The position numbers were made by a program, and so were the translations under genes. Below, in pieces: positions 1 to 52,380 of a stretch of DNA of 64,000 bases; the stretch's first letter is position 1; each line of letters opens with the position of its first letter. This DNA is from Eledone cirrhosa (lineage: Eukaryota), in assembly GCA_964016885.1 (NCBI GenBank), contig OZ024740.1, positions 356,128,001 through 356,192,000 of the forward strand. Direction: 5' to 3'. Under the pieces are notes generated by a model that was not told the DNA's origin, made no database searches, and worked only from the letters and a program-made list of their open reading frames with translations.

Positions 1-3000
1 GACAGTGACAATCCATCCAACATATACCAAATATGTAATGTATGAGCAAGATGAGGACAGTGACAATCCATCCAACATATACCAAATATGTAATGTATGA
101 GCAAGATGAGGACAGTGACAATCCATCCAACATATACCAAATATGTAATGTATGAGCAAGATGAGGACAGTGACAATCCATCCAACATATACCAAATATG
201 TAATGTATGAGCAAGATGAGGACAGTGACAATCCATCCAACACATACCAAATATGTAATGTATGAGCAAGATGAGGACAGTGACAATCCATCCAACATAT
301 ACCAAATATGTAATGTATGAGCAAGATGAGGACAGTGACAATCCATCCAACATATACCAAATATGTAATGTATGAGCAAGATGAGGACAGTGACAATCCA
401 TCCAACACATACCAAATATGTAATGTATGAGCAAGATGAGGACAGTGACAATCCATCCAACACATACCAAATATGTAATGTATGAGCAAGATGAGGACAG
501 TGACAATCCATCCAACACATACCAAATATGTAATGTATGAGCACGATGAGGACAGTGACAATCCATCCAACACATACCAAATATGTAATGTATGAGCATG
601 ATGAGGACAGTGACAATCCATCCAACACATACCAAATATGTAATGTATGAGCAAGATGAGGACAGTGACAATCCATCCAACACATACCAAATATGTAATG
701 TATGAGCAAGATGAGGACAGTGACAATCCATCCAACACATACCAAATATGTAATGTATGAGCAAGATGAGGACAGTGACAATCCATCCAACACATACCAA
801 ATATGTAACGGATGAGCACGATGAGGACAGTGACAATCCATCCAACACATACCAAATATGTAATGTATGAGCAAGATGAGGACAGTGACAATCCATCCAA
901 CACATACCAAATATGTAATGTATGAGCATGATGAGGACAGTGACAATCCATCCAACACATACCAAATATGTAATGTATGAGCATGATGAGGACAGTGACA
1001 ATCCATCCAACACATACCAAATATGTAATGTATGAGCAAGATGAGGACAGTGACAATCCATCCAACATATACCAAATATGTAATGTATGAGCAAGATGAG
1101 GACAGTGACAATCCATCCAACACATACCAAATATGTAATGTATGAGCAAGATGAGGACAGTGACAATCCATCCAACACATACCAAATATGTAATGTATGA
1201 GCAAGATGAGGACAGTGACAATCCATCCAACATATACCAAATATGTAATGTATGAGCAAGATGAGGACAGTGACAATCCATCCAACACATACCAAATATG
1301 TAATGTATGAGCATGATGAGGACAGTGACAATCCATCCAACACATACCAAATATGTAATGTATGAGCAAGATGAGGACAGTGACAATCCATCCAACACAT
1401 ACCAAATATGTAATGTATGAGCAAGATGAGGACAGTGACAATCCATCCAACACATACCAAATATGTAATGTATGAGCAAGATGAGGACAGTGACAATCCA
1501 TCCAACACATACCAAATATGTAATGTATGAGCAAGATGAGGACAGTGACAATCCATCCAACATATACCAAATATGTAATGTATGAGCAAGATGAGGACAG
1601 TGACAATCCATCCAACACATACCAAATATGTAATGTATGAGCAAGATGAGGACAGTGACAATCCATCCAACATATACCAAATATGTAATGTATGAGCAAG
1701 ATGAGGACAGTGACAATCCATCCAACACATACCAAATATGTAATGTATGAGCAAGATGAGGACAGTGACAATCCATCCAACACATACCAAATATGTAATG
1801 TATGAGCAAGATGAGGACAGTGACAATCCATCCAACACATACCAAATATGTAATGTATGAGCATGATGAGGACAGTGACAATCCATCCAACACATACCAA
1901 ATATGTAATGTATGAGCAAGATGAGGACAGTGACAATCCATCCAACACATACCAAATATGTAATGTATGAGCAAGATGAGGACAGTGACAATCCATCCAA
2001 CACATACCAAATATGTAATGTATGAGCAAGATGAGGACAGTGACAATCCATCCAACACATACCAAATATGTAATGTATGAGCAAGATGAGGACAGTGACA
2101 ATCCATCCAACATATACCAAATATGTAATGTATGAGCAAGATGAGGACAGTGACAATCCATCCAACACATACCAAATATGTAATGTATGAGCAAGATGAG
2201 GACAGTGACAATCCATCCAACACATACCAAATATGTAATGTATGAGCAAGATGAGGACAGTGACAATCCATCCAACATATACCAAATATGTAATGTATGA
2301 GCAAGATGAGGACAGTGACAATCCATCCAACACATACCAAATATGTAATGTATGAGCAAGATGAGGACAGTGACAATCCATCCAACACATACCAAATATG
2401 TAATGTATGAGCAAGATGAGGACAGTGACAATCCATCCAACACATACCAAATATGTAATGTATGAGCAAGATGAGGACAGTGACAATCCATCCAACATAT
2501 ACCAAATATGTAATGTATGAGCAAGATGAGGACAGTGACAATCCATCCAACACATACCAAATATGTAATGTATGAGCACGATGAGGACAGTGACAATCCA
2601 TCCAACACATACCAAATATGTAATGTATGAGCAAGATGAGGACAGTGACAATCCATCCAACATATACCAAATATGTAATGTATGAGCAAGATGAGGACAG
2701 TGACAATCCATCCAACACATACCAAATATGTAATGTATGAGCAAGATGAGGACAGTGACAATCCATCCAACACATACCAAATATGTAATGTATGAGCAAG
2801 ATGAGGACAGTGACAATCCATCCAACACATACCAAATATGTAATGTATGAGCAAGATGAGGACAGTGACAATCCATCCAACACATACCAAATATGTAATG
2901 TATGAGCAAGATGAGGACAGTGACAATCCATCCAACACATACCAAATATGTAATGTATGAGCAAGATGAGGACAGTGACAATCCATCCAACATATACCAA

Positions 3001-6000
3001 ATATGTAATGTATGAGCAAGATGAGGACAGTGACAATCCATCCAACACATACCAAATATGTAATGTATGAGCAAGATGAGGACAGTGACAATCCATCCAA
3101 CACATACCAAATATGTAATGTATGAGCAAGATGAGGACAGTGACAATCCATCCAACATATACCAAATATGTAATGTATGAGCAAGATGAGGACAGTGACA
3201 ATCCATCCAACACATACCAAATATGTAATGTATGAGCAAGATGAGGACAGTGACAATCCATCCAACATATACCAAATATGTAATGTATGAGCAAGATGAG
3301 GACAGTGACAATCCATCCAACACATACCAAATATGTAATGTATGAGCAAGATGAGGACAGTGACAATCCATCCAACACATACCAAATATGTAATGTATGA
3401 GCAAGATGAGGACAGTGACAATCCATCCAACATATACCAAATATGTAATGTATGAGCAAGATGAGGACAGTGACATTCCATCCAACACATACCAAATATG
3501 TAATGTATGAGCAAGATGAGGACAGTGACAATCCATCCAACACATACCAAATATGTAATGTATGAGCAAGATGAGGACAGTGACAATCCATCCAACATAT
3601 ACCAAATATGTAATGTATGAGCAAGATGAGGACAGTGACAATCCATCCAACACATACCAAATATGTAATGTATGAGCAAGATGAGGACAGTGACAATCCA
3701 TCCAACATATACCAAATATGTAATGTATGAGCAAGATGAGGACAGTGACAATCCATCCAACACATACCAAATATGTAATGTATGAGCAAGATGAGGACAG
3801 TGACAATCCATCCAACACATACCAAATATGTAATGTTTGAGCAAGATGAGGACAGTGACAATCCATCCAACACATACCAAATATGTAATGTATGAGCAAG
3901 ATGAGGACAGTGACAATCCATCCAACACATACCAAATATGTAATGTATGAGCAAGATGAGGACAGTGACAATCCATCCAACACATACCAAATATGTAATG
4001 TATGAGCAAGATGAGGACAGTGACAATCCATCCAACACATACCAAATATGTAATGTATGAGCAAGATGAGGACAGTGACAATCCATCCAACACATACCAA
4101 ATATGTAATGTATGAGCAAGATGAGGACAGTGACAATCCATCCAACATATACCAAATATGTAATGTATGAGCAAGATGAGGACAGTGACAATCCATCCAA
4201 CACATACCAAATATGTAATGTATGAGCAAGATGAGGACAGTGACAATCCATCCAACACATACCAAATATGTAATGTATGAGCATGATGAGGACAGTGACA
4301 ATCCATCCAACACATACCAAATATGTAATGTATGAGCAAGATGAGGACAGTGACAATCCATCCAACACATACCAAATATGTAATGTATGAGCAAGATGAG
4401 GACAGTGACAATCCATCCAACACATACCAAATATGTAATGTATGAGAAAGATGAGGACAGTGACAATCCATCCAACACATACCAAATATGTAATGTATGA
4501 GCAAGATGAGGACAGTGACAATCCATCCAACATATACCAAATATGTAATGTATGAGCACGATGAGGACAGTGACAATCCATCCAACACATACCAAATATG
4601 TAATGTATGAGCAAGATGAGGACAGTGACAATCCATCCAACACATACCAAATATGTAATGTATGAGCAAGATGAGGACAGTGACAATCCATCCAACACAT
4701 ACCAAATATGTAATGTATGAGAAAGATGAGGACAGTGACAATCCATCCAACACATACCAAATATGTAATGTATGAGCAAGATGAGGACAGTGACAATCCA
4801 TCCAACACATACCAAATATGTAATGTATGAGCAAGATGAGGACAGTGACAATCCATCCAACATATACCAAATATGTAATGTATGAGCACGATGAGGACAG
4901 TGACAATCCATCCAACACATACCAAATATGTAATGTATGAGCAAGATGAGGACAGTGACAATCCATCCAACACATACCAAATATGTAATGTATGAGCAAG
5001 ATGAGGACAGTGACAATCCATCCAACACATACCAAATATGTAATGTATGAGCAAGATGAGGACAGTGACAATCCATCCAACACATACCAAATATGTAATG
5101 TATGAGCAAGATGAGGACAGTGACAATCCATCCAACACATACCAAATATGTAATGTATGAGCACGATGAGGACAGTGACAATCCATCCAACACATACCAA
5201 ATATGTAATGTATGAGCACGATGAGGACAGTGACAATCCATCCAACACATACCAAATATGTAATGTATGAGCAAGATGAGGACAGTGACAATCCATCCAA
5301 CACATACCAAATATGTAATGTATGAGCACGATGAGGACAGTGACAATCCATCCAACACATACCAAATATGTAATGTATGAGCAAGATGAGGACAGTGACA
5401 ATCCATCCAACATATACCAAATATGTAATGTATGAGCAAGATGAGGACAGTGACAATCCATCCAACACATACCAAATATGTAATGTATGAGCAAGATGAG
5501 GACAGTGACAATCCATCCAACACATACCAAATATGTAATGTATGAGCACGATGAGGACAGTGACAATCCATCCAACACATGCCAAATATGTAATGTATGA
5601 GCAAGATGAGGACAGTGACAATCCATCCAACACATACCAAATATGTAATGTATGAGCAAGATGAGGACAGTGACAATCCATCCAACATATACCAAATATG
5701 TAATGTATGAGCAAGATGAGGACAGTGACAATCCATCCAACACATGCCAAATATGTAATGTATGAGCAAGATGAGGACAGTGACAATCCATCCAACACAT
5801 ACCAAATATGTAATGTATGAGCAAGATGAGGACAGTGACAATCCATCCAACATATACCAAATATGTAATGTATGAGCAAGATGAGGACAGTGACAATCCA
5901 TCCAACACATACCAAATATGTAATGTATGAGCAAGATGAGGACAGTGACAATCCATCCAACACATACCAAATATGTAATGTATGAGCAAGATGAGGACAG

Positions 6001-6189
6001 TGACAATCCATCCAACACATACCAAATATGTAATGTATGAGCACGATGAGGACAGTGACAATCCATCCAACACATACCAAATATGTAATGTATGAGCACG
6101 ATGAGGACAGTGACAATCCATCCAACACATGCCAAATATGTAACGTATGAGCACGATGAGGACAGTGACAATCCATCCAACACATACCA
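1..6189. repeat. 55-bp tandem satellite, about 112.5 copies, truncated by the window start
   Basis: Unit GACAGTGACAATCCATCCAACAYATACCAAATATGTAATGTATGAGCAAGATGAG recurs at 1, 56, 111 ... 6161 with only a few variable positions and no indels seen. Confidence 0.99.
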
Positions 6190-9730: not shown

Positions 9731-10407
9731 ACAAAATGATAAAGGATCAAAACATCCTTCAGTATCAAGAGATTCTATAGATTTAAATGGCTGAGAACTG
9801 CTTATTTGTAACTCCAAGTGTGCCCCCCCCCCCCCCTTCTGCCACTGGAGGCTTGGAATATCCGAGACCCCCCCCCCTCATTCTATTTTCAAAAAAGATG
9901 ATATATAATAAAGAAAGAAAATAGTAGAAAAATGTATTCTACGAAAATTATAAAACATTTACAAAACTTCAGTATATACAATGTTTTAACTTTTTCCTTC
10001 AGAGCATATATGAAGGGTTTGTGGGGGTTTTCCTAGTTGTGAATAACCTACATGAAGACCGACAGCCTGCAGAGTTTGACCTTGTGATTTGTTAATGGTC
10101 ATTGTGTAACTGACTCTCACTGGGAAGTGCAATCATTTGAAAGGAAAGAGGATATCTGTTGGCATTAGCTGTCTTCTAGGTATAAATGTGATGTCTCCCT
10201 TACCACATCCAATGAGGATTTTGGCTTAGATAATATGAGGCTGTAGTTCAGTCAAAACCATACATATCCCATTGCACAATCTTGGCTTCACCAATCCAAA
10301 AGTGCATCACATGAGCAAGACATAATCACCTGAATTGTCTGGTTCGTAACAACTCATCTTACTCATGCAAGCATGGAAAATAGATGTTATATGGGGATTA
10401 TGATGAT

Positions 10408-10457
<50 letters not shown>

Positions 10458-10734
10458 AGAATTGGTGCTCTGAAATAGCGATATATCCTAAAAGGACGGT
10501 AGTCCGTTTAGTAATATTGTTGTGGTCGTGTTTTCGTTGGCAATCGTCTGTTTACGACAGTACAGCGCGGCTCTACTTTATTTAACTGAGATAAAACTTA
10601 TATGAGCATGAACAGTAGATCATTACGCATCTTTTGGCTTAAAAATCTAGAAATTTGGTCCAGCGGGAAAAAGTTTATAATCAAAGTTTGCTGATAAATC
10701 TTGTGTTCAAGTGAGTGAGTAGTAAGCGTGACGC

Positions 10735-10858
10735 TAGGGGAGGTAATCCAGAAATGACGATTTTTTTTCGGCGGAACTCTTGTGATACGTTCGTCAAATG
10801 TAGTCAAATCGCCGAATCCCCTCCTCCTAATTGACTACGTCATTTCTGAACGGCCCTA
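10735..10858. mobile_element. Possible small MITE or hairpin within the cassette
   Basis: TAGGGG...CAGAAATGACG versus CGTCATTTCTG...CCCTA imperfect terminal inverted repeats. Confidence 0.35.
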
Positions 10859-11420
10859 CTTGCGTCAGTGTGAAACATTACTTCACTTTTCACTGCTAAA
10901 ATGCTTTTTAAATACTTCGTTAAAAATTTATGTTTATTATCAAAGCTATTTTTTGTACCAATCTATCAATGGTTTGCGAAAATATAGGTAAACATGTGAG
11001 TTAAATTTTTTTTAATCGCATCGATCGCTTTGTCGCACCGACTGTGACACTGTCTGACTGTCTGTCTGACTGACACCTTTGTCGGACCGACACCTTTGTT
11101 CAAGCGGACAACTTTGTTCGTGCCGGCATCTCTGCGAAACACCGATGACAACAACCAGACCAAAATTTCACTTCATTCTTCATTCTTCTTCAAGACCGAT
11201 CGCCGACCGATCGTATCGGTTGCTCTTCATATACCAGGTATTCAACAGATAGTTTGCACTTCTAGTATTATTAACAGTCGTGCGATTTTTTGTACCGATA
11301 GGTGCGAATAGTGCGATAGGTGCGAATAGTGTACAATATTTTCTGAGATTTGCATCCACTAATTTCGCTTAATTAAAAATGATGTTTCGCGGCTTTTTGA
11401 TCGGCTTATTCATTTTTTCC

Positions 11421-12174
11421 ATGGCACGGAAATGGAGTATTTCCATTTCGAATCAAAACTTTTCACTAAAATCGGGCAATTGGACTGATCAAATTCACAT
11501 TCATGCCAGTTTTTACAAATCCATAATTAGAAATGTGGCGAAATCGAATGACCAGAAGGTATAAAAATATTAATTCAAATGTATTTACTTATCATACCAA
11601 CAAAAATACTTAGATATTTTGTATACCTGGGGCCCGTCAGGAGCAGGTAATGTTAATCGCCAACATTGTTATCTGTTGTCCTTTTGTGAAAGTATTGGTG
11701 GTTCATGTCGGCTCTAATGATCTGAATCCTCGTCGCACCGTTGGCACTACAAAGCTGTGCAAAGTAATACAATAATTTTTGCCCAAGTATTTTTTATTAA
11801 TCATTTATTTGTAAATTAAGGACAAAGTGCCCATTCAAGGCACAAAACCGGAAAAACAGGGGAAGAGTCTCTTTGCAAGGCTACAGAAAATAGCGGAAAA
11901 GCACCACTGTACACCCATTTTCTACAGTGGTGTCATTCCACGTCCACAAAGTGTAATTGAAAATAAAAATGACTTGGGCAAGAGAAATTCTCGTTTGGAA
12001 AAGTTTAATTACTGCATGAAAGAAATGATTCAAAAATTGAACTTGCCCAATCTTCACAACATTGAAAATTGGTCAAAATTTGACAAATCTGACTTCAAAC
12101 CAGATATGATTCATTTGAACAATGTTGGAAATCTTAAATTGACACAAATTTTTGCCAATGTTTTTGCCACCTGA
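11421..12174 (+). CDS. Spliced SGNH/GDSL hydrolase (esterase), about 213 aa; exons 11421-11558, 11614-11763, 11821-12174
   Basis: Two phase-0 GT-AG introns (11559-11613, 55 nt; 11764-11820, 57 nt) join an open frame with the SGNH blocks in order: KSIIRNV (block I, GDS degenerate), FCIPGAR (II), VHVGSND (III), YSGVIPR, DMIHLN (V). AATAAA at 12212. Confidence 0.8.
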
Positions 12175-12354
12175 TCCTTGTTCTATGGCTGACTGACTAA
12201 TTTTGTGACTTAATAAAATGTCATCATACTAGTAATGCACAATGGTCATTTTTAAATTTAAATTTTATTAAATAGTTGTTGCTTGCATTGCCTTAAAATA
12301 GTAACAAGAATGTACACATACTTTTTAAAAATACATCATTATCAGTCAAATCAG

Positions 12355-12714
12355 TCAAATGTCACTAAAAGCCAGGTGGTCGATAACAACTTCTATAAGA
12401 TTAGTTACATGCTCACACATTGGATCACCTCTCATCAATGGCATTGGGTGTCTGAGATAATCGTGGAGATAACTGATGAAGTCACAAATGAAGTGATGGT
12501 CTTCCAGTGTGAACAACTCCCTATATCCATTGATATATGTGATGGCTTCCGATTCATAGGTGCATTTTATGAGGAATTCCATGCATCCGATTTTCAGTGA
12601 TTCAATGGGCATTTTATCAGAGATGATAAGGTATTTGACCACGTTTTGCTTTGTAAGTAAATTGGAGAGAATCACTGCAGTCAAAGTCATTTCTTTGCAT
12701 GGGTTTCTGTCCAT
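12355..12714 (-). CDS. 119-aa stand-alone BACK-like (SPOP/BTB-associated) domain protein
   Basis: LLTKQNVVKYLIISDKMPIESLKIGCMEFLIK fits the BACK pattern LxxxNxxxxLxxADxxxxxxLKxxCxxFI. A possible 43-nt 5'UTR intron (12716-12758, GTAAGT...TTTAG) ends 1 nt before the ATG. Minus-strand AATAAA at 12264-12269. Confidence 0.55.
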   Translation of the reverse strand: MDRNPCKEMTLTAVILSNLLTKQNVVKYLIISDKMPIESLKIGCMEFLIKCTYESEAITYINGYRELFTLEDHHFICDFISYLHDYLRHPMPLMRGDPMCEHVTNLIEVVIDHLAFSDI

Positions 12715-12986
12715 TCTAAAAAGTTAAAATGATAAAGTATTACTACTATATAACTTACATCTATTGTTGTAACACCATTGAAATGCACAAGTTTCACCAA
12801 TTCACTATAATGCACTAATCATCTCAAATGCATTCATGATTTACTAGCTTTGTCATTAAGCCAGTTGCCTCAACTAGATTGCAATTATACTCAAAAGAAC
12901 TTTAAATATCAATCACTTGTCAGTAATTCACTATGATCATTTAATTATTAGATAGTTGTTGCTTGCATTGCCTTAAAAAACAGTAG

Positions 12987-14046
12987 ACCAGATAGAAAAA
13001 TGCGTACAGCAAAAAAAAGTAATATTGTTGGAATATAAACCTTTAAAAATACAGGACAAGAAACTAAAATAAAACTTTAAAAGAATAGGACAAGAAACTA
13101 AGATAAAACTTTAAAGAATTGGACAAGAAATAAAAAATTTTACAATAATATTAGTGGCAACATTTTTTTATTCGTTTCCTGTGCTATGCCCCAGTATCTT
13201 CTTGATTAGTGCATAATAATTGTCATGCTCTCATTGTGCGTTGCCCCTGAGCGGTTGGTTCTGGTTGGGGTTGGTTGGCTGAGCAGTTCTGCTCCGTCAG
13301 AATGACCATTGCAAGAAGAATTGGCCGATGCAGCTGCAGGTCTCCTCCAAGAATGCACTTCTGGTCCCGCAACACCAGACGAAGATGGAGAAGACGACCG
13401 GGACAAGATGTCGACTCTGACCACCGACTACGGCACCTCCCTCAACCACCGGTCCTCCCTCCCTCTGTCCCGTCATGCTTCAGTCCTTCTGCTCCCCCTT
13501 CCTGTATCAGAAAGCTGTGGCACGCATTCATCTGGACTGCCGGACTTGAACTCAAGGACAAGATGCAAGGAGAAGATGGATGGGTTGGTCAAGATCAAGG
13601 ATGAGCGGGACGACAAGACCGTCCGCTGCTGCTCAAGATCTGTGCTCATGGGCCCATGGGTCCATTCACATTATGCATGACACATGAGGCGTGTCGCCGA
13701 ATGATGAAATAGGGGTATGGTTATGGCCCAATTGGTGTTCAAACCAGGATCAATTGATCCCCCGGTCTGACGACGACCTCTGAATGTGGAACCCAGAGCC
13801 TATGAATGTGGAACTCGATTTTTTTACCAATAAAATTTTTGCCACTAATATTATTGTAAAAATTTTTATTTCTTGTCCAATTCTTTAAAGTTTTATCTTA
13901 GTTTCTTGTCCTATTCTTTTAAAGTTTTATCTTAGTTTCTTGTCCTATTCTTTTAAAGTTTTATTTTAGTTTCTTGTCCTGTATTTTTAAAGGTTTATAT
14001 TCCAACAATATTACTTTTTTTTGCTGTACGCATTTTTCTATCTGGT
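12987..14046. repeat. Fold-back: arms 12987-13160 and 13839-14046 with internal subrepeats of about 35 bp around a GC-rich core of about 680 bp
   Basis: ACCAGATAGAAAAATGCGTACAGC...TAGTGGCAA is the reverse complement of TTGCCACTA...GCTGTACGCATTTTTCTATCTGGT. The right arm has one extra GGACAAGAAACTAAGATAAAACTTTAAAAGAATA-type unit. Confidence 0.92.
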
Positions 14047-14600
14047 ATATGAATGTATATATAGCATATTTTGCAATACACTGTATGCTTAATTAAAAGC
14101 ATTTCGAAGACCTTACGCTATTGTTTTAGAGTAGTGACAGTCTCACTTACTTTAAATTTTCAGCAAACAGGGGAGATAAAGCTGACAGAGCTCTGTTTCG
14201 TACTAAAACAATAGCGTAAGGTCTTCGAAATGCTTTTAATTAAGCATACAGTGTATTGCAAAATACACTATATATATACATTCATATATATATCGCTATT
14301 TCAGAGCACCAATTCTAATTTTCAATTTCTGCTTGACCGGCAACCGCTCTGTATAATCTGTTCCTGATTATTACTAGAAATTCTATAAGAATCAAACATT
14401 CATGATTTTCAGCAAACAGGTGGTGTACTTGGCTTTGATAAGTACCAATCAGTATGAAACAGAGCTCTGTCAGCTTTATTACCCCTGTTTGCTGAAAATT
14501 TAAAGTAAGTGAGACTGTCACTACTCTAAAACAATAGCGTAAGGCCTTCGAAATGCTTTTAATTAAGCATACAGTGTATTGCAAAATACACTATATATAC

Positions 14601-14610
<10 letters not shown>
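14047..14610 (+). mobile_element. Penelope-type non-autonomous (pLTR/retrozyme-like) element: monomer 14293-14610 plus direct (14203-14292) and inverted (14047-14203) partial copies
   Basis: Direct and inverted duplications of the CTAAAACAATAGCGTAAGG...CATTCATATA tail, a hammerhead-like core, and (TA)n on both outer sides. Confidence 0.7.
14405..14499 (+). ncRNA. Degenerate type I hammerhead ribozyme
   Basis: GCT-TTGATAA (for CUGAUGA)-GTAC caatca GTAT-GAAAC AGAGCTCT GTC-AGC, with an extended helix ATTTTCAGCAAACAGG/CCTGTTTGCTGAAAAT. The inverted copy restores stem II as GTAC/GTAC. Confidence 0.6.
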
Positions 14611-14653
<43 letters not shown>

Positions 14654-14657
<4 letters not shown>

Positions 14658-14971
14658 TGATGGTAGCTAAGATTCTTCCATAGGCGGTATGCCGGTTGAG
14701 CACTCTATGCTCTTACAGAGCAGAGTATGATAGAACAGAAAACGAAAAATCAGTGATGCATCTGAACTCAATTTATTGTGTGTTACAATTGTTTCGCCGG
14801 CAGACAGCTTGAGACACGATCATTGTGTGGATCTGTCTGATTCTGGACACGCAGGTTCAACGGACACATCTAATGATTTAGGAGCATCTCAAGCTGTCCG
14901 CCAGCGAAACAATTGTAACACACAATAAATTGAGTTCAGATGCATCACTGATTTTTTTGTTTTCTATTCTA
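14654..14971. mobile_element. (TA)n-embedded fold-back element with hammerhead half-cores; same family as 29771-30008
   Basis: Inverted arms of about 84 bp (14731-14814 and 14887-14971), each with GAAAC-AATT-GTA. Head and tail are shared with 29771-30008. Confidence 0.75.
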
Positions 14972-15678
14972 TATATATATGAAGGTGCATGCCTTAGCGG
15001 TCAGAGAGTCTGATTCCCAATCATGAGGTTGTGAGTTTGATTTCCAGATCAGGTGATGCATTGTTCTTGAACAACACACATTATTTCTTGTGGCTCTAGG
15101 TCATTCAGCTGTTGAAATATGTAAATAATATGTTGAAATATGCCAAGCTGTATCAGGTTTTGTCTTTCCCTTGGACAACATAGGTGGAGTGGTAAGTGGA
15201 GACTGGTATACATCGCAACAGCTAGTCAGTCTTGAACAAAAACAACTTCCCTAGGCTTGTGCCTGAGGTAATCTTTCTAGGTGTAAAAATCCCAAGGTGA
15301 CCGAAGGTTTTTTTCATATATATATGTATGTATACGTACATACATATATGTATACAGACGTATGTTAGTATGTATATACATACATACATGCATACATACA
15401 TATATGTTCATTGTTCCTTAGTCAGTGTTGAACAAAAGGGCAACGATGGTTGCCGAACACTGTACGGCTACTAATTCGGGCTGTTTGTTTACAAACAAAC
15501 CGAGAATTATAATAAATGTTCGGTAAACCCATACGTACATATATGTATGTGTGCATGTATATATATATATATATATACATACTAGCGTATGTCTGTATAC
15601 ATATATGTATGTATGTATACATACTTATATTTAAGTATCAGCTGTACTAAGAGTGAGAAATGAAGTTTCATTTTTTCC

Positions 15679-16878: not shown

Positions 16879-16945
16879 TTTATATATATATATATATAAT
16901 ATATATATATAATATATATATATAATATAATAATATATATATATA

Positions 16946-19795
16946 ATGATCACCTATAGATCCGGGGAACACACAAGCCAGGTAGATTATATCCTTACCA
17001 GAAGACGTGACAGAGTGTCTGTTGTAAACACTAAATCCCTCCCCCATGAAGAATGCACCTCCCAACATAGACTGATAATTAGCGACCTCATAGTCAGGAC
17101 GAGACGTACTCGACAACAGAAGAGGACTATCCTCAGGAGGAAAATATGGAAGCTAAAGGACCCCACAGCCAGGAATAAATTTCAAAGCATATTACTTGAT
17201 GCTTTCGACAGTAAGGAAGAACATTTAGAGTCGGACAATATAGAGGGAGAGTGGGAATTTCTGAAAGCAAACCTGCTGTTGGCGACAGACGAAGTCTGTG
17301 GCTGGAGCAGGCCTGTAGGCAGGAGGAGAGTAACATGGTGGTGGAACAGTAAGGTGGAGGGGTCAATTAAGGCCAAAAAGCAGGCTTGGAAAGTATGGCG
17401 GGATGGGGGAAGTAGAGAGGACTATCAAGTGGCCAGGAGGGAAGCTAGGAGACAAGTGTACTTAGCAAGAAGGGAAGCTGAGGAAAGAAAGTTCAAGCAT
17501 GTTCTACAACGCGATGACCAAAAACGTGAGGTGTTCAGGATTGCTAGGCAATGCGTCAAGGAAAACCGTGATATTGTCGGGGAGAAGTGTGTACTAAACG
17601 ACGATGGCACACTTGCCATCACCGACGCTGATAAGAAGGTAGCTTGGAAGTGTCACTATGAAAGGCTACTAAATGAGGAGAATAATTGGGAGAAAGGCAG
17701 TCTCCCCCATATCGACCCAATAGAGGGACCAGCAGTGTTAGTCGAGGGGAGTATAATAAGTAAGGCAATCAAGGATATGAAGACGGGTAAGGCGGCTGGG
17801 CCTTCGGAAATAGTTGCTGAGATGCTGAAGGCATCTGGCACGGTGGGACACACCATGGTCACCCGCATAGTTAACCAAGTCGTACAGAATGGGGTTGTTC
17901 CGAAGGACTGGCATAGCAGCATCATCGTTAACTGTTATAAGGGTAAAGGAGACGCCCTAGATAGGAGTAACTATAGAGGCATTAAATTAATCGACCAGGT
18001 CATGAAGGTCACGGAAAAAGTAATAGCGCAACTAATCAGAGAGAGAATTGACCTAGATGAAATGCAGTTCGGGTTTGTGTCAGGCAAAAGTACCACAGAC
18101 GCTCTTTTCATAGTACGACAACTACAGGAGAAGTACCTAGCTAAAGGTAAACCCCTCTACTTAGCTTTTGTCGACTTGGAGAAAGCCTTCGACAGAGTCC
18201 CCCGCTCCATTATCTGGTGGGCTCTTAGAAAACTAGGCGTTGACGAATGGCTTGTGAGGGCTATACAAGCCATGTATAAAGAAACAGTCAGCAAGGTTAG
18301 AATTAACAACGAATATAGTGAAGAGTTTAGCGTAAAAGTTGGCGTCCATCAGGGCTCTGTTCTCAGCCCACTACTATTTATTATTGCCCTTCAGGCTATA
18401 ACAGAGGAGTTCAAGACAGGCTGCCCATGGGAACTTCTATACGCAGACGACCTGACACTCATAGCGGAATCAATGGCCGAGCTAGAGAAGAAATTCCAAA
18501 CATGGAAGCACGGCCTAGAGTCAAAAGGACTTAAAATTAACCTGGCTAAGACCAAAGTACTAGTTTGTAGGAAAGAAAACAAGGCGGCGGTCCCTTCTGG
18601 GAAATGGTCGTGCTCGGTGTGTAGGAAAGGCGTAGGTAGAAACTCCATTTTATGTCCTAAATGCAAAGTATGGGTGCATAAAAGATGTAGTGGGATCACA
18701 GGTAAGCTAACTAAGAACATAGATTTTACATGTGGCCGGTGCTCTGGTGCAATAAGTAGCAGCAAGTGCCCACAAACTACTAGCTCTTTCAATTGCGCAG
18801 AGGGTTCTATAGAAATAGTGGACAGCTTCCGTTACCTGGGCGATAAAATCAGCAGTGGGGGAGGGTGCTCTGAAAGTACTGTAGCTAGAGTCAGAACTGG
18901 GTGGAAAAAGTTCAGAGAGCTTATACCACTATTAGCTGCTAAAGGGTTCTCACTAAAAATGAAAGGCAGGTTGTACGATGCCTGCATACGAACAGCAATG
19001 CTGCATGGCAGTGAGACCTGGGCATTGTGTGCAGAGGATATACGCAGACTAGAGAGGAACGAAGCTTGCATGCTCCGCTGGATGTGTAACAGTAATATAC
19101 GTGAACGGCAAAGCATAAACGAACTAAGGAAAAAATTAGAGATAAGAGGGATCAGATGTTGTTTACTCAAGAGAAGGCTACGTTGGTATGGACACGTGAT
19201 GCGCATGAAAGTCGATAGCTGTATAACAAAGTGCAGGGCAATAAAGATAGACGGTAGTCACGGAATAGGCAGACCTAGAAAAACCTGGGACGAGCTGATA
19301 AACTCCGACATCACACACTTACACCTCTCCAAGACAATGTCACTGGACCGAGACCTTTGGCGGTACTCAGTAACAGAGAAGACCCGCCTTACCTAAATAT
19401 ATAGTAAAACCTACTCCAGCCAGTAGGCATCTCTAACAAAATACACCCCGTCCCACCACCCCCACCCCCACCCCATCCACACCACCCCGTTCTATGTAAA
19501 GTTATGTTGGTGCCGCGCCATCGAGGCCGAAACAAATGAGATCGTGTAGGTGTCACGACAAAAAAACACACAGTCCACGCTGTAATGTGGCCGTGTAGGC
19601 AACACGGTAAAAACCTCCCAGACCCACACTGTAAATGTGGTTGGTGTTAGGAAGGGCATCCAACTGTAGAAAACCTGCCAGACAGTCCTATGCGAGCAAG
19701 ACAATCACTCTTGCCTCAAGTGGGACTACCCCCGTCCAAACCCATGCAAGCGTGGAACACGGACGTTAAACGTTGATGATGATGATGATGATGAT
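16946..19795 (+). mobile_element. 5'-truncated RTE-clade LINE (ORF 16946-19396, 3'UTR, (GAT)n tail)
   Basis: APE C-terminus (DYIL, SQHRL), RT motifs YKGKG, NYRGI, FVDLEKAFD, GVHQGSVLSP and YADD, and a PHD finger. Nearly identical to the copy at 40384-45017. Confidence 0.97.
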
Positions 19796-27067: not shown

Positions 27068-29428
27068 ATCATCATCATCATCATCATCATTTTACGTCCG
27101 TTCTTCCCTACTTGCAAGGGTGGGACGGGTCTTATTCAGCACAGCATCTCTCCACTTGTCATGGTCCTTCATCATCTCCACCGTGAGCTTCAGCGATCTG
27201 AGATCTGTTCTCACCACCTCCGCCCATGTTTTCGTGGTCTACCTCTACCACATCTTCCTTCAACTGGCATTTCCTGGCACTTCTTCACCCATCGGTCATC
27301 CTCCATGCGCATCACCTGTCCATACCACCTCAGTCTCCTCTCTCGCACACTGCATTCTATCCCTCTCAGACACAGTTTCTCTCTCAACACATTCATGTTG
27401 GGTCGTTCACGCACATTGACACTGCACATCCAACGGAGCATGCTTGCCTCATTTCTCTCCAGCCGTCGCATATCCTCTGCAGTTGCTGCCCATCTCTCAC
27501 TACCGTGCAGCATCGCGCTCCTCACACAGGCATCATATAACCGCCCTTTCGTATGCAGGGAGAAACTCTTCTTTGTCAACAGAGAAAGCAGCTCCCTAAA
27601 CTTCTTCCAACCCGTCCTTATTCTAGATACTATGGCCTCGGAACACCCACCTTCCATGCTAATCTGATCTCCTAGGTACCGGACGCTATGCAACACTTCT
27701 ATAGCACCCGCCTGGATTTGAAAAATGTGTCTGTCAATGCGACTTCTACTGTCTAATTTCCCTGTACATCTACTGCATACGTATTTCTCCCTACCTGTTA
27801 GTTTTCCTGCTATTCCGCTACATCTCTTGTGTACCCAGGATCTGCATTGTATGCATTTTATAGAATTTATGCCAGTTCCTTTTCTGCATATCGAACATGG
27901 CCATTTCCCTGATGGAATCAGAGTTTTGTCCTCTTTTCTACTCATCAACACTTTTGTCTGAGCTAGGTTCACTCTCAGTCCTCTTGCTACCAACTGCTGT
28001 TTCCATAGCCAGAATTTATTCTTTAGCTCCTCTACTGATTCTGCTATAAGAACCAGATCGTCAGCATAGAGAAGTTCCCATGGACAGCCAGTCTTAAACT
28101 CCCCTGTTATGGCTTGGAGGACTATAATGAACCAGAGCGGGCTGAGGACTGAATCTTGATGTACTCCTACTTGTATCTGGAATTCCTCACTAACCTCCAT
28201 TCCTACCCTAACTTTACTGACAGTACCTCTGTATAAAGTTTGTACTGTCCTCACCAGCCATTCCTCAACACCTAGTTTCCTTAGGGACCACCAGATGACA
28301 GATCAGGGTACCCTATCAAAGGCCTTCTCTAGGTCAACAAAGGCTTATTTTTCTCTAAGAACATCTCTTGTAATTGTCTCACCAAGAAGAGGGCATCTGT
28401 TGTACTCTTCCCAGGCACAAAACCAAACTGCATCTCATCTAGTTTGACCCTTTCTCTAATTAGTTGTGCTAATATCCTTTCTGACACTTTCATAACCTGA
28501 TCCATCAGTTTTATACCCATATAATTGCTCCTCTCCAGAGCATCCCCTTTACCTTTGTAGCAATTTATGAGAATACTGCTGCACCAGTCTTTGGGTATGA
28601 CCCCACCATATATAGCCTGATTGATGATGCGTACAACCAGTTTAGTGCCTACGTCCCCTGATGCCTTCAGCATCTCAGCAACTATCCCTGATGGTCCAGC
28701 AGCCTTACCATTTTTCATTTCCTTAATCGCCACTTGGGCCCTATATTCGTCATTCTCAATAGCTGGTCCCTATGTCGGATCTAGTGAGGGTAATTTCTCT
28801 CTCTCCTATTCCCTCTCCACATTCATCAGTCTCTCATAATGACATTTCCAGGCCTCCTTCTTCCGATCATTTGTGACACTAAGTACACCGGCGCAATTCC
28901 GGACACATTTATCTCCAACAACATCCTGATTTGCATTGACACACTGCCTTACAATGTGGAACACTGCACGCCTCTGATCTTCCCATTGAAGAACATTGGC
29001 AAACCTCCTACTCTCAGCCTCCCTGCGTGCTAAGTACACCTGACGTCTGTCTTCTCTCTTAGCGGCTGTATATCCTTCCCTACTCCCACCCTTTTTCCAA
29101 GCCTTCCATGCTAGTTTTTTGTCTCTAATGGCCTTATCTACTGTGCTGTTCAACCACCAGGTCACTCTCTGTCTGGTTGGAGCTCTGCTCCAGCCACAGG
29201 TTTCATCAGTAGCCTGCAGCAAGTTGTCACGTAAGAAATTCCAGTTATTATCTATGTCATACGTCTCTAAATCGTCTTCTTTTTCGTCATACACATCTTG
29301 AAGGGCTTTCCTAAATTTGTATTTTAGTGGAAGGTCTTTTAGCTTCCAGACCTTTCTTCTCCACACCTTCCTATATGTCTCATGCCATCTCTTGCTTACT
29401 GAGATATCACTAACGACTAACCTATGCT
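27068..29428 (-). mobile_element. Degenerate 5'-truncated RTE LINE of a second subfamily (ORF pieces 28806-29366, 28329-28733, 27211-28254)
   Basis: Same RT+PHD architecture (GCPWELLYADD, WPCSIC...WVHKRC) broken by frameshifts; (GAT)n tail at 27068-27090. Confidence 0.95.
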
Positions 29429-29719
29429 CTTCATATTTTGTTGTTGTTCCTATCTATTTGTTGCTGTGCTGATAAGCGTTTTGGCATTGATACACTGGTT
29501 GGATGCCCTTCCTAACACCAGTGCCACTTTACAGCATGGACTGGGTGCTTTTATTTGTGCCACCAGCACTAGAGAGGATGTCTTACTAGACTCAAGGGCC
29601 CTCTCTACCCCTCCATTTTACAGCATGGTCATAACCCCCCCCCCCCAACCCCCACTTATTGACACGGCACACACACACACACACTCATACACCAACACTC
29701 ATGCATACAAACACACACG

Positions 29720-40739: not shown

Positions 40740-43700
40740 TTAGAGATGCCTACTGGCAAGGCGGGTCTTCTCTGTTACTGAGTACCGCCAAAGGTCTCGG
40801 TCCAGTGACATTGTCTTGGAGAGGTGTAAGTGTGTGAGGTCGGAGTTTATCAGCTCATCCCATGTTTTTCTAGGTCTGCCTATTCCTTGGCTACCGTCTA
40901 TCTTTATTGCCCTGCACTTTGTTATACAGCTATCGACTTTCATGCGCATCACGTGTCCATACCAACGCAGCCTTCTCTCGAGTAAACAACATCTGATCCC
41001 TCTTATCTCTAATTTTTTCCTTAGTTCGTTTATGCTTTGCCGTTCACGTATATTACTGTTACACATCCAGCGGAGCATGCAAGCTTCGTTCCTCTCTAGT
41101 CTGCGTATATCCTCTGCACACAATGCCCAGGTCTCACTACCATGCAACATTGCTGTTCGTATGCAGGCATCGTACAACCTGCCTTTCATTTTTAGGGAGA
41201 ACCCTTTAGCAGCTAATAGTGGTATAAGCTCTCTGAACTTTTTCCAACCAGTTCTGACTCTAGCTACAGTACTTTCAGAGCACCCTCCCCCACTGCTGAT
41301 TTTGTCACCCAGGTAATGGAAGCTGTCCACTATTTCTATAGAACCCTCTGCGCAATTGAAAGAGCTAGTATTTTGTGGACACTTGCTGCTACTTATTGCA
41401 CCAGAACACCGGCCACATGTAAAATCTATGTTCTTAGTTAGCTTACCTGTGATCCCACTACATCTTTTATGCACCCATACTTTGCATTTAGGACATAAAA
41501 TGGAGTTTCTACCTACGCCTTTCCTACACACCGAGCACGACCATTTCCCAGAAGGGACCGCCGCCTTGTTTTCTTTCCTACAAACTAGAACTTTGGTCTT
41601 AGCCAGGTTAATTTTAAGTCCTTTTGACTCTAGGCCGTGCTTCCATGTTTGGAATTTCTTCTCTAGCTCGGCCATTGATTCCGCTATGAGTGTCAGGTCG
41701 TCTGCGTATAGGAGTTCCCATGGGCAGCCTGTCTTGAACTCCTCTGTTATAGCCTGAAGGGCAATAATAAATAGTAGGGGGCTGAGAACAGAGCCCTGAT
41801 GGACGCTAACTTTTACGCTAAACTCTTCACTATATTCGTTGTTAATTCTAACCTTGCTGACTGTTTCTTTATACATGGCTTGTATAGCCCTCACAAGCCA
41901 TTCGTCAACGCCTAGTTTTCTAAGAGCCCACCAGATAATGGAGCGGGGGACTCTGTCGAAGGCTTTCTCCAGGTCGACAAAAGCTAAGTAGAGGGGTTTA
42001 CCTTTAGCTAGGTACTTCTCCTGTAGTTGTCGTACTATGAAAAGAGCGTCTGTGGTGCTTTTGCCTGACACAAACCCGAACTGCATTTCATCTAGGTCAA
42101 TTCTCTCTCTGATTAGTTGCGCTATTACTTTTTCCGTGACCTTCATGACCTGGTCGATTAATTTAATGCCTCTATAGTTACTCCTATCTAGGGCGTCTCC
42201 TTTACCCTTATAACAGTTAACGATGATGCTGCTATGCCAGTCCTTCGGAACAACCCCATTCTGTACGACTTGGTTAACTATGCGGGTGACCATGGTGTGT
42301 CCCACCGTGCCAGATGCCTTCAGCATCTCAGCAACTATTTCCGAAGGCCCAGCCGCCTTACCCGTCTTCATATCCTTGATTGCCTTACTTATTATACTCC
42401 CCTCGACTAACACTGCTGGTCCCTCTATCGGGTCGATATGGGGGAGACTGTCTTTCTCCCATTTATTCTCCTCATTTAGTAGCCTTTCATAGTGACACTT
42501 CCAAGCTACCTTCTTATCAGTGTCGGTGATAGCAAGTATGCCATCATCGTTAAGTACACACTTCTCCCCGACAATATCACGGTTTTCCTTGACGCATTGC
42601 CTGGCAATCCTGAACACCTCACGTTTTTGGTCATCGCGTTGTAGAACATGCTTGAACTTTCTTTCCTCAGCTTCCCTTCTTGCTAAGTACACTTCTCTCC
42701 TAGCTTCCCTCCTGGCCACTTGATAGTCTACTCTACTTCCCCCATCCCGCCATACTTTCCAAGCCTGCTTTTTGGCCTTAATTGACCCCTCCACCCTACT
42801 GTTCCACCACCAAGTTACTCTCCTCCTGCCTACAGGCCTGCTCCAGCCACAGACTTCGTCTGTCGCCAACAGCAGGTTTGCTTTCAGAAATTCCCACTGT
42901 CCCTCTATATTGTCCGATTCTAGATGCTCTTCCTTACTGTCGAAAGCATCAAGTAATATGCTTTGAAATTTATTTCTGGCTGTGGGGTCCTTTAGTTTCC
43001 ATATTTTCCTCCTGAGGATAGTCCTCTTCTGCTGTCGAGTACGTCTCGTCCTGACTATGAGGTCGCTAATTATCAGCCTATGTTGGGAGGTGCATTCTTC
43101 ATGGGGGAGGGATTTAGTGTTTACAACAGACACTCTGTCACGTCTTCTGGTAAGGATATAATCTACCTGGCTTGTGTGTTCCCCTGATCTATAGGTGATC
43201 AGGTGATTGTCACGTTTTTTGAAGTTAGTGTTACAGATAGTTAGGTTATTTGCATCACAGAATTCCAGGATTCTGGAGCCTTCCTCATTTCTAGTACCAA
43301 ACCCATAGCCTCCATGGATTTCGTCGTAGCCGTCACAATGTTGTCCAACGTGACCATTTAGGTCGCCTGCAATAATTATATAGTCACTGTCAGATATTTG
43401 GGAGGTAGTTAGCAACAGTGTCTCATAGAATCTGTCTTTTATAGTGCCGGGCAGTCCGGATTGGGGTGCGTACGCAGATATTACTGTCACCGTAGTTCTA
43501 TTGAGGACAAGTCTTATTTTAATTATTCTGTCGTTCACTCTATTTACGTCTATTATCTTATCTGCCCACTTTTCTGCTACCATGATTCCTACTCCACCCA
43601 GCCCATCGTCGTTTCCCACCCAGAAAAGCTTATAACATCGTTTTTTACCCTCAATGAATCTAGCAGACCCACCCCGCCACCTGGTCTCTTGAATACAACA

Positions 43701-43913
43701 AACATCGACCTCCTTACGTTCAAGCATTTCTACAACCTCGTTAGCGCGACCCTTTAGGGTGCCTACATTTATGGTACCAACTCTGAAGTTTTGGGTTGCG
43801 TTTGGAGGGTGGGGGTGGTGGGGAGATAGGGTTACGTTAGCCATCCGCGGACGAAACAAAGAGGAGTGCTCGCATTCTCGTCCACGAGGTGAATTTGACT
43901 TTAACTTTGGCAT
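40740..43913 (-). CDS. RTE ORF: APE endonuclease + reverse transcriptase + PHD finger (open from 44261; likely ATG 43913 or 43844)
   Basis: APE motifs TINV, IQETRW, SAYAP, GDLNGH, DYIL and SQHR; RT motifs FVDLEKAFD, SVHQGSVLSP and YADD; no stops in 1173 codons. Confidence 0.95.
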   Translation of the reverse strand: MPKLKSNSPRGRECEHSSLFRPRMANVTLSPHHPHPPNATQNFRVGTINVGTLKGRANEVVEMLERKEVDVCCIQETRWRGGSARFIEGKKRCYKLFWVGNDDGLGGVGIMVAEKWADKIIDVNRVNDRIIKIRLVLNRTTVTVISAYAPQSGLPGTIKDRFYETLLLTTSQISDSDYIIIAGDLNGHVGQHCDGYDEIHGGYGFGTRNEEGSRILEFCDANNLTICNTNFKKRDNHLITYRSGEHTSQVDYILTRRRDRVSVVNTKSLPHEECTSQHRLIISDLIVRTRRTRQQKRTILRRKIWKLKDPTARNKFQSILLDAFDSKEEHLESDNIEGQWEFLKANLLLATDEVCGWSRPVGRRRVTWWWNSRVEGSIKAKKQAWKVWRDGGSRVDYQVARREARREVYLARREAEERKFKHVLQRDDQKREVFRIARQCVKENRDIVGEKCVLNDDGILAITDTDKKVAWKCHYERLLNEENKWEKDSLPHIDPIEGPAVLVEGSIISKAIKDMKTGKAAGPSEIVAEMLKASGTVGHTMVTRIVNQVVQNGVVPKDWHSSIIVNCYKGKGDALDRSNYRGIKLIDQVMKVTEKVIAQLIRERIDLDEMQFGFVSGKSTTDALFIVRQLQEKYLAKGKPLYLAFVDLEKAFDRVPRSIIWWALRKLGVDEWLVRAIQAMYKETVSKVRINNEYSEEFSVKVSVHQGSVLSPLLFIIALQAITEEFKTGCPWELLYADDLTLIAESMAELEKKFQTWKHGLESKGLKINLAKTKVLVCRKENKAAVPSGKWSCSVCRKGVGRNSILCPKCKVWVHKRCSGITGKLTKNIDFTCGRCSGAISSSKCPQNTSSFNCAEGSIEIVDSFHYLGDKISSGGGCSESTVARVRTGWKKFRELIPLLAAKGFSLKMKGRLYDACIRTAMLHGSETWALCAEDIRRLERNEACMLRWMCNSNIRERQSINELRKKLEIRGIRCCLLERRLRWYGHVMRMKVDSCITKCRAIKIDGSQGIGRPRKTWDELINSDLTHLHLSKTMSLDRDLWRYSVTEKTRLASRHL
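43833..43885 (-). ncRNA. Candidate minimal HDV-like ribozyme overlapping a possible RTE start codon
   Basis: Minus strand GTGGACGA(P1) gaa TGCG(P2) AGCA(P3) CTCCTCTT(L3) TGTT(P3') TCGTCCGC(P1') GG atgg CTAA CGTA(P2'). P2 is only 4 bp, and P1 and P3 are each 1 bp longer than canonical. Confidence 0.35.
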
Positions 43914-44207
43914 TTTCGCTCTGAGCGTCCAGATTTTTCTCTCCCTTCCACTCTCCAGGATTCCGCAGTCCGTCCATCCATCCATCCATCCATCATATAT
44001 CGAAGGCAACCGGGCAAGCGATAGTATAGGCCTCTGGCTTATGATTGGTCCGCGTAATAATAATAATGGTGATGCGTGGGGGTGGGGGGGCTCTGGCTTA
44101 TAATAATAATGGTGATGCGTGGGGGGGGGGGCGCTCTGGCTTATGATTGGTCCACGTATTAAGTATGGTGGTGTGTGGGGGCGGGTGGGAGGGGTGTGGG
44201 GGTAGCT

Positions 44208-45119
<912 letters not shown>

Positions 45120-51643: not shown

Positions 51644-52380
51644 TTAAAGATTAAGGTGGTAGAAAAGCCAGGAACCACCATAAAATCCCTGATCATCAAA
51701 ACCTACTCTTTTAAGAAAACCCACTGTACTAATAGGAAATGTATTATATGTAAAGTAAACCCCCGGATAAACTGTAAAACTAGAAACGTAGTCTATAGCA
51801 TAAGATGTACAGAGGGTACTTGCAGAAACATAACAACAACATACATAGGCGAGACAGCTCGTAGCATAGGTGAAAGGATAGACAAACACTGGAGGGAACT
51901 AAAAGGACGAAAAAACGGTTCAGTACTATACGAACATGCCAGACAACAACACGACAGTAACATAAACAACATAGAAATTAGAATAATATCTAAACATAGA
52001 AATGACCCAGCAGATAGGCAATCAGAGAGGCCAGCGAAATAGAACTTAGAAGGCCAAGGCTAAACAGAAAAAATGAATGGAATAACAACAACATCCAAAC
52101 AAACAACACTGACCTAAGAGAAGTATTAATAAATAAATACATACACAAGCACAATAACAACAAACACATATAATCACACACTAGTAAACTAAGATAGAAT
52201 ACAATAACCGATACACAGTCACCCAAACACGAACACACATCAAACAAAACACTATACACACACGCAAACGCATGCGCAGAAAAGACAAAAAAAAACAAAT
52301 AAATAAATAAATAAATAAATATATAAACAGACTAAATAAAGATGGGGTAGGCATACAATACAACGGGAGGAAACATAATA

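Follow-up and report, generated by a model that had tools for sequence, protein, structure and literature searches.

The window analyzed here is a 64,000-nucleotide stretch of the Eledone cirrhosa genome (assembly GCA_964016885.1, contig OZ024740.1, positions 356,128,001 to 356,192,000 of the forward strand), and our subject is a 3.56-kb block within it that interrupts a host repeat and holds a spliced esterase-like gene, an orphan open reading frame (ORF) on the opposite strand and a 3' fold-back (Table 1). A preliminary description, made from the letters of the window, had taken the block for a mobile cassette of an SGNH esterase gene and a BACK-like ORF. Our analysis indicates that the block is almost certainly a copy, shortened by internal deletion and likely made in trans, of a 12.6-kb rolling-circle transposon of Helitron2 type in the same genome, because the copies have common ends, are inserted between A and T without duplication, have a parent encoding a RepHel transposase, carry the same deletion and stem from a recent burst.

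Table 1. Features of the block and of the interrupted repeat, in window coordinates.
Feature	Position	Strand	Remarks
Whole element, assigned to Helitron2 type, non-autonomous	10486..14045	+	5'-TC...CTGG-3'; sharp ends common to 30 copies; between A 10485 and T 14046
5' TC and 10-bp terminal hairpin	10486..10511	+	one mismatch in window copy, at 10493; z -2.97, 4/200 shuffles equally stable
5' subterminal inverted repeat, 13 bp	10510..10522	+	identical in both subfamilies
CpG-rich 5' region of parent	10523..11378	+	aligns to first 1.2 kb of parent; short GTCT-like repeats near 11050-11100
Remnant of RepHel transposase frame, first 48 codons	11379..11522	+	same frame in long copies proceeds to DUF6570/Rep/PIF1
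Internal-deletion junction, in frame	11522..11523	+	~9 kb lost; same in 30/30 copies
3' part of predicted NADAR-SGNH gene	11523..12174	+	last exon, Pfam Lipase_GDSL_3, E 0.0035, below cut-off
Exon-3 tail	11523-11558	+	3' part of predicted NADAR-SGNH gene
GT-AG intron	11559-11613	+	
Exon with blocks II and III	11614-11763	+	
GT-AG intron	11764-11820	+	
Exon with block V DxxH	11821-12174	+	
AATAAA signal	12212-12217	+	back to back with the next
AATAAA signal	12264-12269	-	
Orphan 119-aa ORF	12355..12714	-	open in 26/30 copies
Inner arm of fold-back	12988..13167	-	inverted copy of own 3' end, CTGG/T on minus strand, 34-bp repeats
Fold-back loop, ~0.65 kb	13168..13831		unrelated to loop of sister subfamily
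Outer arm and 3' terminus	13832..14045	+	subterminal repeat 14003-14015; terminal CTGG 14042-14045 (sister: CTAG)
Interrupted host repeat, outside element	14046..14620 (continues 10454-10485)		very high copy, palindromic

Ends, target site and copy number

The 3.0-Gb assembly was searched with positions 10487-14046 as the query, and 38 of 819 candidates were scored, among which ~30 were near-full-length copies of the block at 93-98% identity. In the 30 loci that were fetched, similarity halted at the same two points, 10486 and 14045, and the flanks were unrelated; the sharp ends described previously were confirmed, but both lie one base further left than the positions that had been given (10487 and 14046). 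A 34-base pattern of the left end had 297 exact matches in the genome, and its reversed control had none. The copy count that had been proposed as a check thus confirmed a multicopy family, and longer relatives with a transposase were found. A host gene was ruled out by the multiple copies in unrelated flanks.

The target site was tallied over the distinct element ends (98 left and 68 right). An A preceded 97 of the left ends and a T followed 67 of the right ends, indicating an invariant A/T target (a slash in a target site marks the point of insertion). TA stood directly before 72 of the 98 left ends, so the earlier proposal of TA targeting holds as a preference, whereas the invariant target is A/T. 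Among 20 copies with both ends, 9 had no flanking repeat and the remaining 11 matched solely in TA-rich flanks. The two flanks of the window copy, when joined, equal a paralogous empty junction that lies intact near 14288-14321 (97% to 10453-10486), as expected of the discrete insertion that the preliminary description had recognized, and no target-site duplication is seen, which rules out a target-duplicating DNA transposon. The joint 10485>14046, which skips TC..GG, was present in contigs of 4/4 public runs. The empty site that had been suggested as a check was therefore recovered, but these contigs most likely represent paralogous empty copies of the very-high-copy host repeat rather than alleles. 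An end-to-end (circle) joint was absent from the joints listed for the public-run contigs, in which rare forms are dropped.

The 13-bp subterminal repeat recurs inverted 30 bases before the right end. No strong hairpin was found near the 3' end, the last 61 nt folding weakly (-2.7 kcal/mol). A sister subfamily, represented by 99 exact left ends, has the 13-bp repeat unchanged and the terminus CTAG in an A/T target, which 20/20 of its left ends and 3/3 of its right ends fit. The stem of its 5' hairpin carries a compensatory G-C/C-G swap, and some of its copies have tandem double 5' ends. One locus (L120, G000:C2:289412000-289421990) contains a tail-to-tail pair of different deletion derivatives of the family, separated by 3 kb.

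The parent element, its deletion and its cargo

Forty left-end loci were extended to 10 kb, and most of them proved to be shorter deletion forms. In two of the 40 (L108 and L118), the shared left end ran on into a Rep-like reading frame, which had 26 genome matches at an identity of at least 87%; 20 of these were fetched as 20-kb stretches. A parent copy with both ends (L157+L158) spans 12.6 kb. As the longer copies reveal, the parent contains a DUF6570-Rep-PIF1 helicase with a UCH domain, a five-exon predicted NADAR-SGNH gene, the orphan ORF and the 3' fold-back. Pfam searches with the ORFs of the least damaged copy, L171 of the sister subfamily (80-90% identical to the window-family ORFs), returned Helitron_like_N (1.5e-26), PIF1 (3.2e-20), DUF6570 (9.2e-18; 65.4 bits against a cut-off of 24.3), C-terminal UCH (2.2e-10), Pif1_2B_dom and UvrD_C_2. 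L171 thus has the HUH Rep and PIF1 helicase that make up a RepHel, and broken ORFs of the same kind occur in the long copies of the window subfamily. The frame that begins at 11379 continues straight into Rep, and the sister layout is identical, which argues against RepHel being an independent nested insertion. DIRS, Ngaro and Crypton elements were ruled out, since the parent has no tyrosine recombinase or reverse transcriptase (RT).

Both long copies of the sister subfamily have an in-frame TAA inside the helicase (L171:8062-8064, at the same place in L169), and the long copies of the window subfamily lack the 6 bases at this site, are open there and are broken elsewhere. The N-terminus of RepHel (L171:2350-2745, L118) contains LLIIGCVELNPGP near residue 130, after a hydrophobic leader. 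We take this stretch to resemble a 2A/StopGo motif, presumably of the consensus DxExNPGP with C in place of D. The UCH cysteine and histidine boxes were recognized by eye, and the domain likely acts as a deubiquitinase, a role that is plausible because Helitron-borne VTD domains are active deubiquitinases (PMC9741609; this and the other papers cited are drawn on in excerpt).

Relative to two parents, the window copy lacks 8,985 and 9,094 bp, a loss that took out RepHel-UCH, the exons that encode NADAR and, from SGNH block I, the G-D. Thirty copies, compared over 1.55 kb, had a mean pairwise distance of 1.4%, with singletons making up 252 of the 282 variants. The common junction, the low divergence and the preponderance of singletons indicate one founder and one recent, star-like burst. 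The nonsynonymous/synonymous (N/S) ratio among the copies was 0.93 for the SGNH part and 0.68 for the orphan ORF, values that record change after insertion and are no test of selection on the founder. These findings agree with the earlier view of a non-autonomous element moved in trans, the transposase having been lost and a RepHel-bearing parent having the same ends. In the mechanism we propose, the RepHel of the parent, supplied in trans, would nick at the TC end and displace one strand up to CTGG, and the displaced strand would be joined, probably via a circle, into a new site between an A and a T, in many cases within TA repeats. The TC end would lead, judging from TC/CTRR and the direction of RepHel. 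A circle intermediate has been reported for FoHeli1 (PMC5148889).

The deletion fused the first RepHel codons in frame with the tail of the predicted NADAR-SGNH gene. The spliced frame of the window copy encodes 227 aa from the ATG at 11379 and 213 aa from the ATG at 11421; the chimeric frame is open in 17/30 copies, and most copies retain the splice sites. What had been described as an apparently intact SGNH gene is this in-frame chimera of RepHel codons and an esterase tail, in which the GDS of block I is missing and RepHel-derived residues stand in its place at 11522/11523. Since the deletion removed the G-D of the GDS block, the chimera is likely inactive, and the spliced gene of the window is a by-product of the deletion. 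The introns reported at 11558/11614 and 11763/11821 are real as sequence (GT-AG, open frame), and the back-to-back AATAAA signals are also as described. No intron joint was among the joints listed in 4 public-run contig sets, which are of unknown kind and have no bearing on splicing. The region between the 5' repeat and the RepHel codons is likely the RepHel promoter and 5' untranslated region. The block had been called CpG-rich, which is true of its left 1 kb (observed/expected 1.4 over 10486-11523) but not further along (0.41 and 0.65).

Three further exons precede the junction in the parent, and for each of them NADAR was the best Pfam family. The matches are colinear on the profile (4-67, 82-116 and 118-162; 18.2, 16.1 and 13 bits, sum 47). 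Matches in the ESM Atlas fell in NADAR clusters in 23 of 30 cases (top 0.95). One of the three full copies has an uninterrupted five-exon frame of 335 aa with four GT-AG introns of 54-217 nt, and the other two are frameshifted. The SGNH blocks are recognizable in copies of the family as IVGDSI (I), IPGA (II), HVGSND (III) and DxxH (V). Several results weaken these assignments. Each NADAR exon alone, the exons having been scanned one by one, scored under the Pfam cut-off of 35.1; a genome search with the NADAR family matched one parent copy only, at 30.7 bits; and the ESM Atlas recognition value was 1996, under the mark of 2300. The SGNH match in Pfam was weak (E 0.0035-0.013), and in the one uninterrupted copy block V reads NxxH, with N replacing the aspartate.

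NADAR exon 1 was complete at three loci, every one of them within the element, and the sister subfamily has neither the NADAR-SGNH gene nor the orphan ORF. Searches made exon by exon, with the limits this entails, turned up no host gene as the source. When exon 3 and the final SGNH exon were compared with longer proteins, no result was obtained, which is weak evidence by the search's own note; NADAR exon 1 against 1.84 billion representatives gave one match, a tandem-repeat artefact; and sequence searches of the PDB gave nothing better than E>0.2. Among the protein searches, metagenomes yielded a single 32-residue match at a contig edge. The SGNH domain of the parent is predicted to be an esterase. 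NADAR proteins hydrolyze guanine ADP-ribose (PMC11125620), and removal of ADP-ribose from the DNA or RNA of the element is therefore our leading guess for the NADAR cargo, a tentative one with the balance tilted against it; the alternative is a passenger without a role.

The orphan ORF was present as described and could be assigned to no family. Its identity as BACK-like found no support: BACK gave no match in Pfam, in PDB sequences at E 10, among longer proteins or in the ESM Atlas, where the best value was 0.85. The AlphaFold model of the ORF (pLDDT 39) was too poor for a fold search. No relatives were found among longer proteins (again weak evidence by the search's own note). The ORF is flanked by a diverged direct repeat of ~90 bp (12214-12303 and ~12900-12978; 76% identity, with a 34-bp core at 97%), and in the sister subfamily the region upstream of the NADAR gene joins the second repeat copy almost directly.

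The fold-back, rival explanations and the host repeat

That the block ends in a fold-back was borne out, the arms (12988-~13167 and ~13832-14045) being 93-99% complementary. The inner arm repeats, in inverted orientation, the last 180-215 bp of the element and includes the subterminal repeat for a third time (13018-13030). The fold-back lies at a homologous place in both subfamilies, and each inner arm fits the end of its own subfamily (CTGG versus CTAG). Reverse self-insertion has been proposed as a route to composite elements (PMC5148889), and the CTGG/T end of the inner arm is as would be expected of reverse self-insertion into A/T. Several copies had variable stop points near the inner-arm end, and the ORFs of the loop varied among copies. 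The loop was inverted in 1 of 76 matches (L157+L158); a second minus-strand match was an entire inverted neighbor. The loop of the sister subfamily (L172:1471-2085, plus strand) has a 205-aa ORF with a cysteine cluster that looks PHD-finger-like by eye and has no Pfam match.

We compared rare variants between the two arms. Both arms bore the same rare variant in 4 of the 51 copies compared, whereas permutation gives an expectation of 0.41 (p=1e-4). Of these four variants, one was also seen in single arms of other copies, and most of the 30 inner-arm and 50 outer-arm variants occurred in one arm only. Two copies of the sister subfamily, two composite loci and one duplicate had been excluded beforehand, two more copies were dropped automatically on account of identical-looking pure-TA flanks, and any copy without a recognizable arm was left uncounted. 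These results suggest occasional conversion from arm to arm, whether within a folded single strand in the course of transposition or by chromosomal recombination; the data fit both.

Inverted arms of ~180-215 bp around a loop, the inversion of this loop in one copy and the different loops of the two subfamilies would also suit a separate terminal-inverted-repeat element (a miniature inverted-repeat transposable element) nested at the end of the Helitron. We regard this as very unlikely, given that the outer arm holds both the CTRR/T terminus and the repeat that pairs with the 5' subterminal one, that the arms occupy a homologous place in both subfamilies and match the end of each, and that the fold-back is without a flanking duplication. 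Hardly better placed is the proposal that the RepHel/SGNH chimera is a functional new gene aiding the spread of the derivative. Its junction is in frame, the splice sites are preserved in most copies with an open frame in 17/30, and a RepHel serine falls at the position of the former catalytic serine; against this, the chimera has lost strand 1 together with the G-D of block I, derivatives without most of the gene appear equally abundant in read contigs (joints 10760>11992 and 10759>12845), and variation among the copies is neutral (N/S 0.93), though post-insertion mutations are no test of the founder.

The preliminary description had considered mobilization by Penelope-like retroelement machinery, to which the retained introns, the surrounding repeat with its hammerhead-like motif and a Penelope-like ORF elsewhere in the window (49277-51702) could be related. 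The exact TC/CTGG ends and the invariant A/T site in diverse unrelated flanks, the absence of a polyA tail and of a pseudo-long terminal repeat, and above all a parent that encodes RepHel instead of RT and ends in the same TC/CTRR make the probability of this cargo model negligible. Equally remote is descent from an endogenous virus or from a giant element of unknown kind, of which the block would be a fragment. The small orphan ORF and the enzyme genes, for which the databases searched gave no close relatives, would be in keeping with such an origin, but the entire 12.6-kb parent is bounded by Helitron ends, no capsid or polymerase ORF was seen in it, and viral contigs yielded no relative for either ORF. 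The block is instead best read as an internal deletion of a Helitron2-type element present in the same genome.

Of the hammerhead element that the block was said to interrupt, the interrupted repeat is confirmed, but the hammerhead is recognized by eye only. The hammerhead-like motif lies at 14431-14475 (plus strand) and carries U and A at what we take to be canonical positions C3 and G8, a possible compensatory pair. Rfam gave no gathering-score match in the window and no hammerhead at E≤5 in 14040-15100, and the stretch was no more stable than shuffles (z -0.70). Elsewhere in the window, positions 1-6189 are a tandem satellite (55-bp unit, 112.5 copies, 98% matches), the minus strand of 49277-51702 holds two overlapping ORFs that look by eye like a Penelope-like RT with GIY-YIG and have no Pfam match, and endonuclease/RT ORFs of long interspersed elements, RTE-like by eye, lie at 16934-19396 (+), 27211-29453 (-) and 40740-44273 (-), one of them having 1177 aa without a stop.

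Classification, significance and closest known systems

The sequence features place the family in HLE2 (Helitron2), as a variant, rather than in HLE1 or among strict Helentrons. This membership follows from the presence of DUF6570, the F-W-R signature of Rep and the inverted repeats. DUF6570 and UCH have been described as HLE2-specific, DUF6570 being a marker of HLE2, and the defining trait of HLE2-reverse is a 5' stem-loop that precedes the left repeat (PMC11417382). HLE2/Helentron traits include F/Y-w/l/y/k-R before Rep motif 2 and an S between the G and P of that motif (PMC4067079). In the present family, F-W-R precedes Rep motif 2, and the asymmetric subterminal inverted repeats of 12-16 nt expected of HLE2 (here 13 bp, 10510/14003) are found together with a stem-loop at one end. 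In this family Rep motif 2 is YFWRLEYQQRGAPHIH, as compared with YVIEFQKRGLPHAH at 6 further Rep loci of the genome; the family also reads YFWRLEYQQRGAPH where these 6 loci read YVIEFQKRGLPH, so its Rep is not of the HLE1 type, which has G-L-P and lacks F/Y-w-R before motif 2. The ends are those of HLE1 (5' TC, 3' CTRR, A/T insertion), but DUF6570 conflicts with HLE1, and the HLE1 hairpin 10-12 nt before the 3' end was not found, the strong hairpin being at the 5' end. The apurinic endonuclease domain of strict Helentrons was also absent (no Exo_endo_phos match at E 0.1 in L171), the C-terminus being UCH. At the level of the superfamily (Helitron2), the block is accordingly part of a described transposon kind, an outcome that the preliminary description had set against its own proposal of a new one.

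Some observations weigh against these conclusions. HLE2 was assigned from sequence markers; the target is A/T at 97 of 98 left and 67 of 68 right ends, instead of the T/T usual for HLE2; the 3' stem-loop of canonical HLE2 is missing; and Rep motif 2 has G-A-P, which is neither the G-S-P of Helentrons nor the G-L-P of Helitrons. An uninterrupted RepHel-UCH frame occurred in 0 of 20 long copies, so a mobilizing copy was not found among them, and the best frame, from the sister subfamily, consists of 1904 aa, a TAA and 507 aa. T/T is only "generally" the target of HLE2, the proto-Helentron being an A/T exception within it (PMC4067079, PMC11417382).

The genome also contains HLE1-type Rep loci, many of them near-identical and ~100-130 kb apart on a few contigs (G000:C20, C27, C19 and C16; L061-L080), a spacing that suggests a Helitron within a large tandem or segmental repeat. 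In the window, outside the block, the minus strand of 9986-10132 holds a relic of the helicase C-terminus of another Helitron, with a TINKSQGQTL-type motif (Pfam UvrD_C_2, E 0.074).

Taken alone, the block is a non-autonomous derivative of an ordinary sort, and the significance lies in its parent. By the searches run, the genome has the predicted NADAR-SGNH gene in this element only. In the most far-reaching interpretation, an animal HLE2 lineage with Helitron1-like TC/CTRR ends and A/T targets would carry a counter-defense kit, in which a deubiquitinase is joined by a NADAR-SGNH protein stripping host ADP-ribose marks from single-stranded DNA or RNA, and would have a 1-kb 3' panhandle that is repaired arm from arm and can flip in replication; as a whole this picture is speculative and rather unlikely. 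If the NADAR-SGNH protein is active, it would point to nucleic-acid ADP-ribosylation as an animal host defense against rolling-circle transposons. The co-evolving arms of the fold-back offer a sequence-level handle on the poorly known transposition intermediate of Helitron2, and tools keyed to termini would miss or misclassify such elements.

Judged from its sequence, the family would be unusual in combining Helitron1-like TC/CTRR/A/T ends on an animal HLE2, NADAR-SGNH cargo and co-evolving fold-back arms. Neither the HELIANO supplement nor the literature searched, from which subscription journals were largely missing, yielded a Helitron with NADAR, a fusion of NADAR with SGNH or an animal element with these termini, and the family may already be catalogued in Repbase or Dfam, which lay outside the search. 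HLE2 has been detected in an octopus genome (PMC11417382, Table S10), and recently active Helitron families have been described in an octopus (PMC13282606). For the cargo, texim of fish Helitrons (PMC4021074) is similar by description, being an intron-containing SGNH hydrolase gene multiplied by a Helitron; the excerpted account relates its SGNH to CR1 ORF1 esterases and finds it Helitron-associated in fish and not in other animals, and it describes no NADAR fusion. A NADAR domain of the YbiA family is carried by other transposable elements, an Ectocarpus Gypsy in Pol and an oyster Tx1 in ORF1 (PMC12477816). In those retrotransposons it lies inside Pol or ORF1, whereas here a rolling-circle DNA transposon carries it in a spliced gene of its own, as a fusion with SGNH.

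The closest systems in overall layout are three. UCH subgroups c-d of HLE2 (HELIANO, PMC11417382) share DUF6570, RepHel, a downstream UCH and 13-bp subterminal inverted repeats, and their non-autonomous derivatives likewise keep both ends. The present family differs in its A/T instead of T/T target, its TC and CTRR termini, its 5' stem-loop and its lack of an endonuclease domain, and NADAR-SGNH is outside the domains listed there, the supplement having 0 matches to NADAR or GDSL. The HLE2-reverse elements FoHeli3/4/5 of Fusarium oxysporum (PMC5148889, PMC11417382) resemble it in the hairpin directly upstream of the left repeat, the absence of a 3' hairpin, a right repeat ~30 bp from the 3' end, a length of 9-12 kb and multiple 5' termini in some copies, which here occur in the sister subfamily. 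They start with TGCCT, end with CTCCTGT and have no established target in the excerpts, in contrast to TC, CTGG or CTAG, and A/T in the present family, which resides in an animal genome and has a 1-kb 3' fold-back. The proto-Helentron of Phytophthora infestans (PMC4067079, PMC11417382), reported from Phytophthora only and not seen in 404 genomes, shares an HLE2-type RepHel without endonuclease, a CTAG-type 3' end, an A/T target without duplication, a 5' stem-loop, extra cargo ORFs and a length of ~14 kb; it differs in its 5' TT, its SET/TIR cargo and a left repeat 3.6 kb from the stem-loop, which is adjacent here. The combination of an HLE2 transposase, a 5' hairpin and a Helitron1-like set of ends and target has thus been described in part only, for an oomycete and for fungi, in the excerpts of these papers, and the present family would bring these features together in an animal.

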